Origin: a phage
Direction: 5' to 3' (one strand)
Length of the DNA stretch: 64,000 nt
Sequence record: PZ445488.1
The position numbers and the translations under genes are program-made. Shown piece by piece: positions 26,528-41,634 of this stretch (its first letter is position 1; each line of letters starts with the position of its first letter). Below the pieces are notes generated by a model. That model saw only the letters and a list, made by a program, of their open reading frames with translations. It did not search any database and had not been told where the DNA came from.

Positions 26528-26741
26528 AAGGAATTTCCTCATCGGTGGCAAGGTCATATTCGACCAATTGGATAGGCTCATTAATACCATATCCACGTAC
26601 AATGATATCAGTTGTCGGATAGTTTCCAGTAATATCACCCATTCTAAATGCTTCAGTGAATGATTGCTCGCCAGAGCAACTAAACCAGGCGGCAAAACAT
26701 TTTAAAACATCTTCAGACCCTTCTATAATCAATTTAGCCAT
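26517..26741 (-). CDS. hypothetical protein
   Basis: 74 aa ORF, ATG start. Confidence 0.4.
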   Translation of the reverse strand: MAKLIIEGSEDVLKCFAAWFSCSGEQSFTEAFRMGDITGNYPTTDIIVRGYGINEPIQLVEYDLATDEEIPYVD

Positions 26742-27103
26742 TATAGGCTCTCAGTAAAGGTACGAGCGATAACGTCGCGCTGCTGTTCCGGAGTCAGAGA
26801 GTTAAAGCGAACTGCATAACCGGATACACGGATGGTCAGCTGAGGATATTTTTCCGGATGCTTAACTGCATCTTCCAGAGTTTCGCGACGCAGAACGTTA
26901 ACGTTCAGGTGTTGACCACCTTCAATTTTAACTTTAGGTTGATGTTCAATTTCAATTTCACGGGCATTCAAACCGTAGAAAATTTCCGGGTCTACAATAG
27001 CGTCTTCTTTAAAAGTCTTAGAGACAATAATCCGGGCTTGAGTACCGTCTTCAAAATAAATAGTGCCTTTGTGTGTGCCTTCAAGAATTTGATATGCTTT
27101 CAT
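26741..27103 (-). CDS. autonomous glycyl-radical cofactor (GrcA/YfiD-like; T4 Y06I-like)
   Basis: 120 aa; C-terminal glycyl-radical motif [27 protein letters not shown]. Confidence 0.8.
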
Positions 27104-27109
27104 ATAACC

Positions 27110-27418
27110 TCAATTAGAAAATAAATTTATCCAAGTTTTTTCTTTAATCAAAAATGGGTCAGAATTAAACGCCATTAAACTTTGAGTGATTAATCCCTTA
27201 AACGGCCCATCAATAAATTCCATTTTGAAATGCGGAATACTAGTCATCAACCGTGCATTAGGAGCAGTACAAAGAACCTGCTGCCCTGCGAACGGACCTT
27301 TAGTCAAACGATATCGTTTAGGTTTAAAATGGTAAATCTCGTAATTTTCTACAAGAGCCCTTTTATTGCATACTGGGCTGTTATAACAATACTCAAAAAC
27401 TTCAATAGTGGTCATCAT
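27110..27418 (-). CDS. hypothetical protein
   Basis: Track start is TTG; in-frame ATGs at 27418/27415. Confidence 0.35.
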   Translation of the reverse strand: MMTTIEVFEYCYNSPVCNKRALVENYEIYHFKPKRYRLTKGPFAGQQVLCTAPNARLMTSIPHFKMEFIDGPFKGLITQSLMAFNSDPFLIKEKTWINLFSN

Positions 27419-27954
27419 TGCATTCCAATCACAAAAAATTGAGGACGAGCAATACCGCCGATGCAATATTTGCTTTTGCAACAGTGTTGGACTGTTTTAA
27501 TATGGACATTGTAAATCTTATCCATATCAGGAGCTTTAATAGGCTCGTCAATTATGTACAGAATACGAGAAAGCGTTAATCCACGGAATTTAGAACCTTC
27601 ATTGCCAATAAAACTACGGACAGAATCAGTAAATAAACGGAATCGAATATCATCGCTAGAATAACGAGAAAATTCTTTTTTAATGTTGCCAGCAGAAATT
27701 TTAGCATAGGCTGAAGTATTAGAAAGAACAATAACTGTTCCACCGTCATACAGCCAATTAACAGCAAAATTAGTTACTGCAGTCGATTTACCTGATTGTC
27801 GGCCGCCGTCTAAACGAAGTGTACAGTACTGCTTGAGTACGTCTTCAAACGGTGGGATATAACCGTTCTTACAAATTTCTTCTACTCTAGCATCAGAATG
27901 GTGTGTAAAAGCATTCATCAGGGATAGATAAGGTCCAGTTAAAAATGTTCTCAT
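27415..27954 (-). CDS. hypothetical P-loop protein
   Basis: 179 aa; GGRQSGKST Walker A-like motif. Confidence 0.5.
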   Translation of the reverse strand: MRTFLTGPYLSLMNAFTHHSDARVEEICKNGYIPPFEDVLKQYCTLRLDGGRQSGKSTAVTNFAVNWLYDGGTVIVLSNTSAYAKISAGNIKKEFSRYSSDDIRFRLFTDSVRSFIGNEGSKFRGLTLSRILYIIDEPIKAPDMDKIYNVHIKTVQHCCKSKYCIGGIARPQFFVIGMQ

Positions 27955-28126
27955 TTAGTTTCTCTTAAGGTTGGGGCCATTCCGTGGCACATGTTAGGTC
28001 CTTCGACTCGCTATGTAAACCCATTACCGCATTGCGCTCGACCTTATTACAGGTTGGAAAAGGTACATCACTTAGAGGACTCGACGTTCATAAGGAGAGG
28101 TTGCGTTTCCCTTTATTAGACAAGAA

Positions 28127-28456
28127 TTATACTCTAGGCTTTTGAGCTTGTTTGGTATTGGATTCCCATGCGGCTTTGGTAATTTTGTTAGCGGCATAGC
28201 CAAAGGCATTAGATAGAACACCTTTAGAGTTGAATACATCCAATCCAATAAGTACACCTGCTGTGTTAAATTTAGGAGCAAAGTATGCATTAGTTTTAGA
28301 AAGAGCTTTTTTCAATTCAGGGTCTTGAACCAAGCCATCAAAAACGCCTTTACTATTTACTTTATATGTTACTTTGGGATTTTTACCTTCTTCGATAGCA
28401 GCTTTCTGTTCAGCAGATAATGTAACTTCAGTGATAAATTCTTGATACATTTTCAT
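28127..28456 (-). CDS. internal-protein-like protein with capsid-targeting N-terminus
   Basis: 109 aa; N-terminus MKMYQEFITEV resembles T4 internal protein CTS MKTYQEFIAE. Confidence 0.55.
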   Translation of the reverse strand: MKMYQEFITEVTLSAEQKAAIEEGKNPKVTYKVNSKGVFDGLVQDPELKKALSKTNAYFAPKFNTAGVLIGLDVFNSKGVLSNAFGYAANKITKAAWESNTKQAQKPRV

Positions 28457-28462
28457 TTTTCC

Positions 28463-28876
28463 TTAGTAAATTGATTTACCATAGTATTTGTACCAAGTCA
28501 GTCGTTGAGCAATTTTTTCATCTAAGCGTGCTTGACTTATCGCAATGGACGCTTCGGAAGGGACATAATTATTACGAAATTCGGCAGGGATGTCGGAAAT
28601 ATCCTGGACTGTCGTGTCCTTGATTTTGAAACCACGTTTCAAGCATTCAGCGATTAGCTCGATTTGTCGTAAACGTAAAAATTCAAGTTTGTCGTAAAAG
28701 AATGTTACGTGACCTGTGCCTAAGATAAATGTTGGAGAGATTTTAAAATCCTTTACACGTTTACCGTTTTGAACATGTTTACGGACTGCACCAAATACGC
28801 GTGGTAATTCACGATACTCAGCCATAAGATGTTGGTCGGTCAGTTCAGAAACAAGTGTTAAATTGATACGGGTCAT
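28463..28876 (-). CDS. denV: endonuclease V (pyrimidine dimer DNA glycosylase) DenV
   Basis: 137 aa from ATG 28876: [35 protein letters not shown]...; near-identical to recalled T4 endonuclease V. Confidence 0.92.
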
Positions 28877-28894
28877 AATTTCCTCCAAGTAGTT

Positions 28895-28933
28895 GATGAA
28901 TGTATAGTATCAAAGTCCTTGGAGGAAGTAAAC
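28895..28933 (-). promoter_or_regulatory. PeSL-like early promoter with stem-loop upstream of denV
   Basis: 9-nt inverted repeat TCCTCCAAG/CTTGGAGGA flanking TATAGTAT; GTTTAC on minus. Confidence 0.5.
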
Positions 28934-28934
28934 A

Positions 28935-29216
28935 CTATTTTTCTGAAGCGCCTGAAATATATTTTTCAAGACGTTGTTTCATTAACGAGCCGTTCTTAGC
29001 GATTTCTTCCGGTTTATCGCACATACGCAACAGTGCTTCAAGCTTAGCGATATCGCTGGTACGTTCAAATTTGCGAGTATCTATCTTACTGGCAAGTTCA
29101 GAAATACGTGCTAATAGACTTTCGGCTTCAACCAAAGCTGCACCTAGCTTAGTTGCAAATGTGTCAGTAGCTTCGTTAAGAATAGATTCTGATAAAAATT
29201 CACTATATGTTTTCAT
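28935..29216 (-). CDS. internal-protein-like protein with capsid-targeting N-terminus
   Basis: Start at ATG 29216 ([16 protein letters not shown]...), ATGA overlap with lysozyme stop. Confidence 0.5.
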
Positions 29217-29701
29217 ATATACGCTTTCCAAGTTCCTGTTTTAAATGTTGAGATTACGCGTTTCGCGCGATTAGGTGTCTGACGATACCATTTAGATTGG
29301 GCTAGATTTACTGCCGCTTCATCCCAACGTTTCTGTTGAAGCATACGAAGAGAATTAGTAAAACCAGCAACGCCTGCTACACCCATTTGGAAGACCATAT
29401 TGACCAATGCACATCGACGAACTGCATCTAAAGAATCATATACCGGTTTAAGTTTAGCATTACCCAAGATTCCGCGAACGGCTTTATCGACGTCTTCATT
29501 AAATAGCTTTTCAGCCTCATCAAGGGTAATTGTACCGTTGCATTTACGACCGATCATTCTGTCAAGTTCAGCTTTAGCTACGGCTAAAGACGGGTTCTTT
29601 GTTACTAAATGGCCTATGCCAATCGTCCAAAAGCCTTCAGTGTCTTTGTATAAAGTCAGTCTAAGACCTTCGTCATTACGAAGCATTTCAAATATATTCA
29701 T
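29213..29701 (-). CDS. e: endolysin (T4 lysozyme, gene e)
   Basis: 162 aa; [32 protein letters not shown]...; near-identical to T4 lysozyme including catalytic E11/D20/T26 context. Confidence 0.95.
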
Positions 29702-29729
29702 AATACCTCCTACGTTTATAGGAGGTATT
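29702..29729 (-). promoter_or_regulatory. 11-bp hairpin sequestering the Shine-Dalgarno of gene e
   Basis: AATACCTCCTA-loop-TAGGAGGTATT immediately 5' of the e start codon; SD AGGAGG lies in the 3' arm. Confidence 0.5.
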
Positions 29730-29735
29730 TATTAC

Positions 29736-30194
29736 TTATAGGAGGGTAGTGAGCACCTTATATAATGATTTGCCCATCACATATTCCCATTGAGAAGGTT
29801 TAATTAAAGCGAATGCATCAAATTCAGGAATCTGTCGTCCGTCTGGGAATGTATGATAGGAATTACAAACACTGTTTCTGAATTGCTCGTGCTCTACAGG
29901 GATGGTATATAGGAACAGATGAATATTCTTATTGTCTGAGTAATGATGTTCACCTAGGTCTTTCAGGAAGGCAGGGTCATATTGTGTAAACCCAGTTTCT
30001 TCTTCGCATTCACGAATAGCGGCTTCAATAGGAGATTCGCCAGGTTCGACACGGCCTTTAGGAATATCCCAGCGATGAGCTAATGCACCTTTAGGACGAG
30101 AACCAGTTACACGCCCCATGAATAATTCTTTATCTTCGGTAAGGAAAATAATACCGGCTGATAGCTCTTTCACTTTATTTTTCTTACTCATCAT
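29736..30194 (-). CDS. nudE: Nudix hydrolase NudE
   Basis: 152 aa; Nudix box GRVEPGESPIEAAIRECEEETG; position downstream of e as in T4. Confidence 0.85.
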   Translation of the reverse strand: MMSKKNKVKELSAGIIFLTEDKELFMGRVTGSRPKGALAHRWDIPKGRVEPGESPIEAAIRECEEETGFTQYDPAFLKDLGEHHYSDNKNIHLFLYTIPVEHEQFRNSVCNSYHTFPDGRQIPEFDAFALIKPSQWEYVMGKSLYKVLTTLL

Positions 30195-38594: not shown

Positions 38595-38671
<77 letters not shown>

Positions 38672-38674
38672 AAT

Positions 38675-38749
38675 TGGTGACCCTGGCTGGTTTCGATCCA
38701 GCTACCTATCAGTTATGAGCTGACAGCTCTCCCATTGAGCTACAGGGCC
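38675..38749 (-). tRNA. tRNA with CAU anticodon (Ile2-type as in T4, or Met), CCA encoded
   Basis: Minus strand GGCCCTG-TA-GCTCAATGGGAGAGC-T-GTCAG-CTCATAA-CTGAT-..-GCTGG-ATCGAAA-CCAGC-CAGGGTC-A-CCA; manual cloverleaf. Confidence 0.75.
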
Positions 38750-40251: not shown

Positions 40252-40515
40252 TTAAATACCAGCTTCGCGTTTAACATAATCGACGTAAGCTTGGATAGCT
40301 TTCTTGCTGGTAATTTTTACCTGGCCTCGTCCGTTGCCTTCTTTAGAGTTTTTCTTAACAACTACATTACCATCTTTAACACCCCATACATGGACATAAG
40401 TACCGATGTTTCGGTCGTAGAACATTGCATGGTCGTTGTTGTAAGAGAATGATTCGTAGTTCTCTGACAGAGTAGAAGATTGAGATTCAGCGATAAATTC
40501 TTTATAGGTTTTCAT
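40252..40515 (-). CDS. internal-protein-like protein with capsid-targeting N-terminus (ipI position)
   Basis: 87 aa; N-terminus MKTYKEFIAES matches T4 IP CTS. Confidence 0.6.
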   Translation of the reverse strand: MKTYKEFIAESQSSTLSENYESFSYNNDHAMFYDRNIGTYVHVWGVKDGNVVVKKNSKEGNGRGQVKITSKKAIQAYVDYVKREAGI

Positions 40516-40541
40516 TTGTTTTTCCGTTTGGTTGTTGATTT

Positions 40542-40580
40542 GATAGGACTACTATAACATAGTCCTATCAGCATGTAAAC
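40542..40580 (-). promoter_or_regulatory. PeSL-like early promoter with stem-loop
   Basis: GATAGGACTACTATAACATAGTCCTATC...GTAAAC; minus sense GTTTAC-N17-TATAGT. Confidence 0.5.
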
Positions 40581-40583
40581 TAC

Positions 40584-40871
40584 TTACAGAAGAGTTTTTG
40601 CAATAATTTTAAGCTGAGCTACAGAAATATGCTTAGCTTTAAACAGTGCGGTCTCTTCGGCCGGAGAGATAACAACAGTAGCGCCATCTTTCTTAGCAGA
40701 CCATCCGTCCCCTAAGTAAACAGTACCTTTTACTTCTTCACCATCAACCAGACTAATCATCGGTTTACCCTCACGTCCTTTATTTGCTTTAATAACTTCG
40801 GAAGTAAGGGTTGCTTCGGTCAGAGTAGAAACGTTAGCAACAGGTGATATAAATTCTTTATAGGTTTTCAT
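40584..40871 (-). CDS. internal-protein-like protein with capsid-targeting N-terminus
   Basis: 95 aa; N-terminus MKTYKEFISPV. Confidence 0.55.
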   Translation of the reverse strand: MKTYKEFISPVANVSTLTEATLTSEVIKANKGREGKPMISLVDGEEVKGTVYLGDGWSAKKDGATVVISPAEETALFKAKHISVAQLKIIAKTLL

Positions 40872-40906
40872 TTTATTTCCTTGAGGTTGTTTATTTGATA
40901 GGATGA

Positions 40907-40935
40907 TAGTATCACACCATCATCCTTATGTAAAC
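40907..40935 (-). promoter_or_regulatory. PeSL-like early promoter with stem-loop
   Basis: GATAGGATGATAGTATCACACCATCATCC...GTAAAC. Confidence 0.45.
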
Positions 40936-40948
40936 TGTTTTGTGAAAA

Positions 40949-41634
<686 letters not shown>

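Follow-up and report, generated by a model that had tools for sequence, protein, structure and literature searches.

Introduction

No phage proteins arrive in the host cytoplasm earlier than the internal proteins. In the T4 group they share a family signature, a conserved address label joined to unrelated, fast-diverging cargo (PMC3012670, PMC9026906). The first ten residues of T4 IPIII suffice for packaging, also of foreign proteins, according to PMC9026906; as that source summarises Mullaney & Black 1996, the targeting determinants are positions 4 and 7 (Tyr and Phe), positions 8 and 10 specify the cut made by gp21, the prohead protease, which does not cleave when position 10 is Asp. The T4 internal proteins have been described as basic (PMC9026906). 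For the T-even phages as a group, PMC12373910 puts the number of internal proteins at 'at least 10', with reference to Repoila et al. 1994. One that occurs in T2 and PP01 is Ip5, which the same source, again following Repoila et al. 1994, places among the alternative internal proteins found at the polymorphic ipI locus. Shuffling of these genes is a long-standing proposal (Repoila 1994, as discussed in PMC4122927).

The T4 proteins Ip1, Ip2 and Ip3 each inhibit a different GmrSD-type enzyme, without cross-protection (PMC12373910). Such enzymes belong to the type IV restriction class and target hmC DNA that carries sugars. Inhibition of GmrSD by internal proteins has also been described elsewhere, together with the finding that IPIII lacking its tag works in the cytoplasm, where its expression in the host rescues a host-specific plating defect (PMC9391042). 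Similarly, RB69 IPI protects against GmrSD, and the DNA of RB69-group phages, RB69 included, contains ara-hmC and is attacked by some GmrSD enzymes (PMC6024577). Because all three T4 internal proteins are anti-restriction proteins, each uncharacterised tagged protein becomes a candidate defence inhibitor and host-range determinant. This is of practical relevance, as CEV1 and other RB69-like phages are in use against E. coli O157.

Here we describe two genes, ORF-A and ORF-B, in a 64,000-nucleotide stretch of phage DNA (sequence record PZ445488.1; hereafter the window). A sequence-only reading had singled them out as internal-protein-like genes that flank denV, and had taken them as signs of an expanded internal-protein set.

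Results

Genome setting and gene order

The phage that the window comes from belongs to the T4 family and, within it, to the genus Mosigvirus (RB69 group). Across positions 27900-29800, the sequence is 100% identical to a contig of Escherichia phage CEV1, and 29 other Mosigvirus genomes among the matches listed are 97.5-98.1% identical over the same interval. Every gene from nudE to the vs.8 homologue is encoded on the minus strand, in the transcription order nudE (29736-30194, NUDIX), gene e for a T4-type lysozyme (29213..29701, Pfam Phage_lysozyme), ORF-B (28935..29216), denV (28463..28876), ORF-A (28127..28456), a non-coding stretch of ~170 nt and the vs.8 homologue (27415-27954). The identity of denV, which encodes endonuclease V, a pyrimidine-dimer glycosylase, is supported by Pfam PF03013 (Pyr_excise, E=3e-14) and by the annotation of the same gene in relatives. 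The coordinates and N-termini previously given for the two ORFs are thus correct, and the ORFs do lie on either side of denV.

ORF-B encodes 93 amino acids and corresponds to RB69ORF127c; its capsid-targeting sequence (CTS) occupies 29187..29216 on the minus strand. The start of ORF-B overlaps the stop codon of gene e (ATGA), which suggests translational coupling. ORF-A encodes 109 amino acids, corresponds to RB69ORF123c, and starts 6 nt past denV behind the ribosome-binding site AAGGA, with its CTS, MKMYQEFITE, at 28427..28456 (minus strand).

Four window genes carry the capsid-targeting tag

The proposal that the two ORFs share a capsid-targeting N-terminus is supported by sequence. The motif MK[TMS]YxEF[ILV] occurs four times in a six-frame translation of the window versus 0.0 times in 100 shuffles, and the looser K[TMS]YxEF likewise occurs four times versus 0.07 by shuffling. 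All four occurrences form the first residues of a small ORF behind a ribosome-binding site, and the 30 nt that encode the tag are identical at 21-26 of 30 positions among the four genes. Targeting residues Y4 and F7 are kept in both ORF-A and ORF-B, and the predicted gp21 site, (L/I)-x-E at residues 8-10, reads I-T-E in ORF-A and L-S-E in ORF-B. A second site of this kind in ORF-B, L-N-E, ends at residue 15.

The other two tagged genes also lie on the minus strand. The gene at 40252..40515, in the ipI locus, encodes 87 amino acids beginning MKTYKEFIAE, and a homologue of its mature part is encoded without a tag at another place in a Dhakavirus genome, which indicates that this cargo can function without a tag. 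The gene at 40584..40871 encodes a 95-residue IPI homologue (Pfam IPI_T4, E=3e-50) with a 19-residue propeptide ending in L-T-E. Residues 20-95 can be aligned over their full length with mature T4 IPI* as solved by NMR (2JUB), and the 76-residue mature protein differs from T4 IPI* by four substitutions, the same four-position difference that has been reported for RB69 IPI (PMC6024577).

The window therefore holds four tagged genes, versus three in T4, and not the five that had been counted. Both strict and loose scans give four: four regular-expression scans of all six frames, relaxed as far as M[KR]x[YF]xx[FY], found no fifth CTS gene. The likeliest sources of the miscount are the ORFs at 40949-41404 (MKFEDF...), which is gene 57B/Acb1, and at 26741-27103 (MKAYQILEG...), a Vs.6/GrcA homologue; both lack the motif.

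ORF-B is an Ip5 homologue

ORF-B belongs to an already recognised family. It matches phrog_3499, 'internal head protein', with E=2e-46, and is named likewise in many GenBank records. Over 84 of its 93 residues, ORF-B is 48-51% identical to Ip5 of PP01 and T2 (E about 1e-17 to 1e-20); the CTS is present in both proteins, and a BLASTP comparison of the mature parts returned PP01 Ip5 as the sole match (49% identity, E=6e-20). Ip5 is encoded beside 57B, at the ipI locus, and ORF-B between e and denV, so that the same cargo gene is found at a different ip locus. The predicted mature ORF-B protein comprises 83 amino acids (about 9.2 kDa) and is near neutral, with a pI of 6.3. Structures were predicted with AlphaFold2 in single-sequence mode, as both families are too narrow for deeper alignments. 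The ORF-B model is all-helical, with three helices and a pLDDT of 71.6, and a Foldseek search of this model against the PDB gave nothing below E=2.7.

ORF-A has a diverged Dhakavirus orthologue

ORF-A falls into phrog_3966, 'unknown function' (E=1e-30), and matches 91 phage records. In a spread sample of these matches, the product is named 'hypothetical' in all annotated records listed bar one, whose product names are visibly scrambled. Cleavage after Glu10 would leave a mature protein of 99 amino acids and about 10.7 kDa, with 15 K+R versus 8 D+E and a pI of 9.7. The AlphaFold2 model of ORF-A was unusable (pLDDT 48). An exhaustive HMMER search with mature ORF-A recovered the phage orthologues and, in addition, weak multi-stretch matches to long repeat proteins (MBG_2, cadherin-like and YD-like), which we set aside as repeat-inflated; ORF-A has no match to the corresponding Pfam models even at E<=1.

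A diverged orthologue of ORF-A is ORF054 of the Dhakavirus AnYang, at 38% identity in the alignment, or 33% (E=2e-16) when the mature parts are compared by BLASTP. Nine of the ten tag residues are identical between these orthologues, and the residues that follow the tag diverge. This orthologue was also the only match of mature ORF-A when compared with the other tagged window proteins, T4 IPII and IPIII, Ip5, and the extra tagged proteins of RB69 and the Dhakavirus.

A pairwise comparison of mature regions with known internal proteins, which the sequence-only reading had called for, was consistent with this picture. The mature parts of the four window proteins, T4 IPII and IPIII, and the extra RB69 and Dhakavirus proteins are mutually unrelated, the two exceptions being the pairs ORF-A/AnYang ORF054 and ORF-B/Ip5. 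Against IPI*, IPII and IPIII, neither mature ORF-A nor mature ORF-B gave anything better than E=0.6. Conservation of the tag on unrelated or diverged mature parts indicates that it is selected independently of its cargo. Pfam, NCBIfam and PDB sequence searches gave no match for either ORF, and sequence and fold searches revealed no likeness to any characterised inhibitor. A word-indexed search of 5.8 billion proteins recovered near-identical phage proteins only, for both. Dozens to hundreds of phages isolated independently have both ORFs in intact form, with 96-100% conservation, and diverged orthologues occur in other genera. Overall, the tag residues, the position in the e-denV ip locus and the unrelated mature domains support the description of both as internal-protein-like genes, and this evidence is enough to warrant re-annotation of ORF-A as a putative internal head protein.

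A deletion junction inside the tag-coding sequence

Both ORFs are small cassettes in the e-denV region, the content of which varies among related phages. Between e and vs.8 there are two tagged genes in the window, two in T4, four in RB69, and five each in the Mosigvirus S143_2 and in AnYang. In the window, RB69, S143_2 and AnYang, denV has tagged genes to either side, which is not the case in T4. In close relatives, two or three further CTS genes separate denV from ORF-A; in RB69, for instance, ORF124c and ORF125c, both CTS genes, lie between denV and ORF123c.

DNA alignment of the denV/ORF-A junction points to the origin of the shorter layout. On its 5' side, through ATGAAAATGTATCAAGAATTTATCA, the junction is identical to the RB69 denV/ORF125c junction, which is also the S143_2 type; past ATGAAAATGTATCAAGAATTTATCA, it is identical to the body of an ORF123c-type gene. 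The alignment places a crossover, from one CTS to another, within about 10 nt of tag-coding sequence (28431-28440, minus strand). As judged from this junction, the crossover removed two or three tagged genes and yielded the hybrid MKM...ITEV N-terminus of ORF-A. A recombinant junction inside the tag-coding sequence means that genes were deleted here, not added, and several sequenced relatives have the same deleted layout in one-piece alignments. The claim of an expansion is consequently not supported: the number of tagged genes at the locus, two, equals that of T4, and the junction is a deletion scar. The sequence comparison instead describes a set that has been swapped and partly deleted. Placement of the crossover within the tag also provides sequence-level support for the shared 30 nt as a recombination handle.

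The tags themselves are altered in RB69. That of ORF123c bears an E10A change, and in ORF127c paired -1 and +1 frameshifts have scrambled residues 5-12. Unless these changes stem from sequencing errors, they mean that RB69 can dispense with the tag.

Expression signals

The roughly 4 kb of sequence to each side of ORF-A and ORF-B contain no canonical late promoter, TATAAATA, and late synthesis of the two proteins is therefore an assumption. Upstream of e are degenerate versions, with one and two mismatches, of T4's two late promoters (AATAAATA and TATAAACG). In T4 these two promoters of gene e lie inside a hairpin that sequesters the ribosome-binding site, and the same hairpin is conserved in the window. 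The coupling of ORF-B to gene e, taken with this hairpin, counts in favour of an internal protein. ORF-A follows denV, with an early-promoter/hairpin element like that of T4 upstream; in T4, ipII and ipIII are also behind early promoters.

A conserved RNA-like element between ORF-A and vs.8

Separately, we observed an RNA-like element of about 150 nt, conserved and covarying, just downstream of ORF-A and before vs.8. With a covariance model, exactly one copy is detected in the window (27958-28116, minus strand; 171.6 bits), and blastn of the stretch between ORF-A and vs.8 matched 905 phage records. Klebsiella T4-like phages retain 87% identity over 148 nt, far above the expectation for spacer DNA, and the invariant core reads ACCUGUAAUAAGGUCRAGC...GCGGUAA. 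Aligned across 16 diverse copies, the element fits a seven-helix structure with 94.5% pairing, versus 16-47% with the partners slid. Both partners have changed in five of the pairs, and none of 500 shuffles attained the observed value on any of five measures. In the window copy itself a C-G pair has become U-A, a double change whose U·G intermediate is seen in S143_2. The helices persist, built from different sequences, in shorter T4-type copies and in divergent metagenomic ones, and in divergent phages the element lies near tRNA clusters.

The element has no match in Rfam, at the gathering threshold or at E<=10, and is unrelated to T4 rnaC and rnaD. The 18-mer core also has 11 matches in bacterial genomes, a number within chance expectation, and none of them is accompanied by the remainder of the motif. 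In T4, the covariance model places the copy under the annotated 5' end of vs.8. The corresponding N-terminal extension of T4 vs.8 is broken across three frames in the window and stopped by TAG in some T4-type phages, and is therefore probably non-coding.

Discussion

A probable pair of packaged and injected proteins

The evidence from tag, locus and cargo argues that ORF-A and ORF-B are packaged, gp21-processed internal proteins, a reading to which we assign a probability of roughly 0.75. As for T4 IPII and IPIII, the first ten residues (CTS) would bind the prohead scaffolding core, after which gp21 would cut behind Glu10, at I-T-E in ORF-A and at L-S-E in ORF-B. Mature ORF-A, a basic protein of ~10.7 kDa, and mature ORF-B, a near-neutral helical protein of ~9.2 kDa, would then remain in the head with the DNA and enter the host together with it. 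By analogy with T4, we infer packaging, cleavage and injection for both. The window ends short of the expected position of gene 21, and gp21 is present, along with the gp22/67/68 scaffold genes, in ATK47, a phage with the same locus layout and 97.8% identity at the locus. The searchable literature yielded no virion proteome for a Mosigvirus or any phage of the RB69 group.

Once in the host cell, the likeliest role of each mature protein would be to neutralise a 'first-response' defence, which makes the additional host-targeting functions suggested by the sequence-only reading plausible. By analogy with the T4 proteins, we hold the odds of such an anti-defence role for injected ORF-A and ORF-B to be about even, and any specific defence target of either protein is speculative. 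A further, tentative suggestion is that the two are inhibitors with new specificities beyond those of Ip1-3, directed against defences that act on the arabinosyl-hmC DNA of RB69-group phages (GmrSD/BrxU-like or other first-response systems), and that the 30 nt of the tag are a built-in recombination handle through which such genes are swapped or deleted in a single step, as at the denV/ORF-A junction.

Alternative roles

An alternative, which we judge unlikely, accepts packaging and processing but places the main role of the proteins inside the head, in assembly kinetics or in DNA charge neutralisation and condensation. There is precedent for this view, as T4 IPIII mutants assemble heads more slowly, their burst is reduced to about 40% of normal, and at low salt DNA is bound by internal proteins (PMC9026906), whose lysines touch DNA phosphates (PMC3012670). 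At pI 9.7, mature ORF-A is suitably basic and fits the description of the T4 proteins; mature ORF-B, at pI 6.3, is not basic and is unlike them. Moreover, these genes come and go among near-identical phages, which fits poorly with a needed structural role, and anti-restriction targets are now known for three of three T4 internal proteins (PMC12373910).

Less probable still is that one or both ORFs encode cytoplasmic early proteins whose CTS-like 5' end is a by-product of shuffling, kept as a recombination substrate or as a translation-initiation region. The tag-coding sequence is demonstrably a recombination site, and RB69 tolerates damaged tags in both genes. The tag-less Dhakavirus homologue of the 40252-40515 cargo points the same way, as does the lack of a canonical late promoter nearby. 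ORF-A is co-transcribed with denV, an early gene, downstream of an early promoter and hairpin of the T4 type, which would likewise suit an early protein, but T4 ipII and ipIII are similarly placed. Against this interpretation, the residues mapped as tag determinants are kept across orthologues that are 38% identical, whereas the residues that follow diverge. In addition, ten such residues package foreign proteins in T4, according to PMC9026906, so an intact tag is expected to package any protein that is present late.

That the ORFs are unexpressed, their likeness being chance or a degenerate remnant, can be dismissed as highly improbable: small size and the lack of a Pfam or NCBIfam family are all that favour it, and against it stand 96-100% conservation of intact ORFs across dozens to hundreds of isolates, diverged orthologues in other genera, ribosome-binding sites and a motif count far above chance.

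Comparison with known internal proteins

Both window genes have orthologues in RB69 (GenBank AY303349), the type phage of the genus. RB69ORF123c is 97% identical to ORF-A and occupies the same locus, as RB69ORF127c does for ORF-B. Both RB69 genes are annotated as hypothetical and, unlike the window copies, have altered tags.

In T4, the counterparts by position are IPII and IPIII, which are encoded on the same segment and strand as ORF-A and ORF-B. Their tag, MKTYQEFIAE, compares closely with the MKMYQEFITE of ORF-A, and Y4, F7, an aliphatic residue 8 and E10 are common to these and to ORF-B. Size is also similar, with 100 amino acids in T4 IPII. In contrast, the mature domains have no detectable similarity to those of the window proteins, and the arrangement differs: both T4 genes lie between e and denV, whereas the window has one on each side of denV. 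ORF-B further departs from T4 ipII and ipIII in that it overlaps e, is without an intergenic promoter or hairpin of its own, and encodes a protein that is not basic.

T4 IPI* (PDB 2JUB, Pfam IPI_T4), a GmrSD inhibitor, is the sole structurally characterised member of the class. Its similarity to ORF-A and ORF-B ends with the first eight residues, and its propeptide of 19 residues differs from the 10-residue type of the window proteins. IPI* nevertheless provides the mechanistic template for both: a tagged protein is cut by gp21 at (L/I)-x-E, is injected, and inhibits a modification-dependent nuclease. The internal-protein concept, known since 1994-1996, is unchanged by these two genes, the products of which may act like Ip1-3 yet lie outside those protein families.

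An apparently structured RNA-like element downstream of ORF-A

The interval between the stop codon of ORF-A, the tagged gene that follows denV, and the start of the vs.8 homologue is occupied by an element of ~150 nt (27958-28116, minus strand) that is conserved, RNA-like and apparently structured. We found it in 905 phage records, with 87% identity to the copies in Klebsiella T4-like phages, and its core (ACCUGUAAUAAGGUCRAGC..GCGGUAA) is without variation. A seven-helix model affords 94.5% pairing versus 16-47% in slid controls. Compensatory changes were observed at five pairs, and none of 500 shuffles attained the observed values. Furthermore, helices P1, P2 and P6 are retained with different sequences in T4-type and divergent metagenomic copies.

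A CM scan of the window revealed one copy of the element, and in IMG/VR it is present on 31 contigs, as a single copy at each locus fetched. Searches of Rfam at E<=10 yielded no match to the element, comparison ruled out T4 rnaC or rnaD as its identity, and bacterial matches to one of its 18-mers were rejected as chance. In the divergent phages, tRNA clusters lie near the element, and in the Tevenvirinae genera examined it forms the downstream edge of the variable internal-protein cassette array.

The annotated start of T4 vs.8

As annotated, T4 vs.8 (220 aa) runs through the T4 copy of the element (2804-2941 of the T4 segment L002; about 64803-64940 of NC_000866). Comparison of this T4 interval with window positions 27955-28126 placed the vs.8 start in the window and in RB69 at Met42 of the T4 protein. 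The 41 codons upstream are broken across three frames in the window, and the same stretch is closed by TAG in other T4-type phages. Judged from these sequences, the N-terminal extension of T4 vs.8 is probably an annotation artefact.

Altered tags in the RB69 reference record, and the ipI locus

Both RB69 orthologues of the tagged genes flanking denV carry changes in the capsid-targeting N-terminus. In RB69ORF127c, the orthologue of ORF-B (the tagged gene between e and denV), the tag-coding sequence has, relative to the window, lost one nucleotide and gained another ~22 nt away (2076-2120 of the RB69 segment L003 versus window 29170-29216); this pair of changes scrambles residues 5-12, such that RB69 reads MKTYMNFYQNLS. 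The tag of RB69ORF123c, the ORF-A orthologue, carries E10A. Either the 2003 record contains sequencing errors here, or the laboratory strain has lost these packaging signals. Separately, the GenBank product names of Escherichia phage ESCO10 (OM386655) are visibly out of register and should not be relied on; its lysozyme, denV and internal-protein genes bear names such as baseplate, ADP-ribosylase and DNA ligase.

At the ipI locus, the third tagged gene (40252-40515) encodes a mature part with 62% identity to ORF188 of Dhakavirus AnYang (1195-1416 of segment L007), a small gene adjoining topoisomerase gene 52 that has no tag and begins MKTLNIN. The pair looks like a natural instance in which an existing gene either acquired a tag by grafting or lost the one it had. 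The locus adjoins gene 57B (40949-41404, minus strand; Pfam PF23474, E=6.5e-59), which encodes the anti-CBASS nuclease Acb1 and thus places ipI in an anti-defence neighbourhood. This ORF (MKFEDF...) may be the one that the sequence-only reading counted as a fifth tagged gene.

tRNA genes, hairpins and promoters compared with T4

The tRNA genes of the window (38595-38749, minus strand) number only two, for Arg-tct and Met-cat, compared with eight, together with rnaC and rnaD, at this site in T4. Upstream of e, the RBS-sequestering hairpin (AATACCTCCTA-TAAACG-TAGGAGGTATT; 29702-29740, minus strand) is kept, but the two exact late promoters of T4 at this hairpin (TATAAATA) are replaced by AATAAATA and TATAAACG. 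Ahead of each of the two ipI-locus tagged genes, and of denV, lies a hairpin with TATCAA(A/C)T...SD after it (40516-40583, 40872-40948 and 28877-28934, minus strand); examples are AGGACTATGTTATAGTAGTCCT and GGATGAT...ATCATCC. These elements are similar to the promoter-early stem-loop (PeSL) cassettes reported in T4-type phages (PMC4122927).
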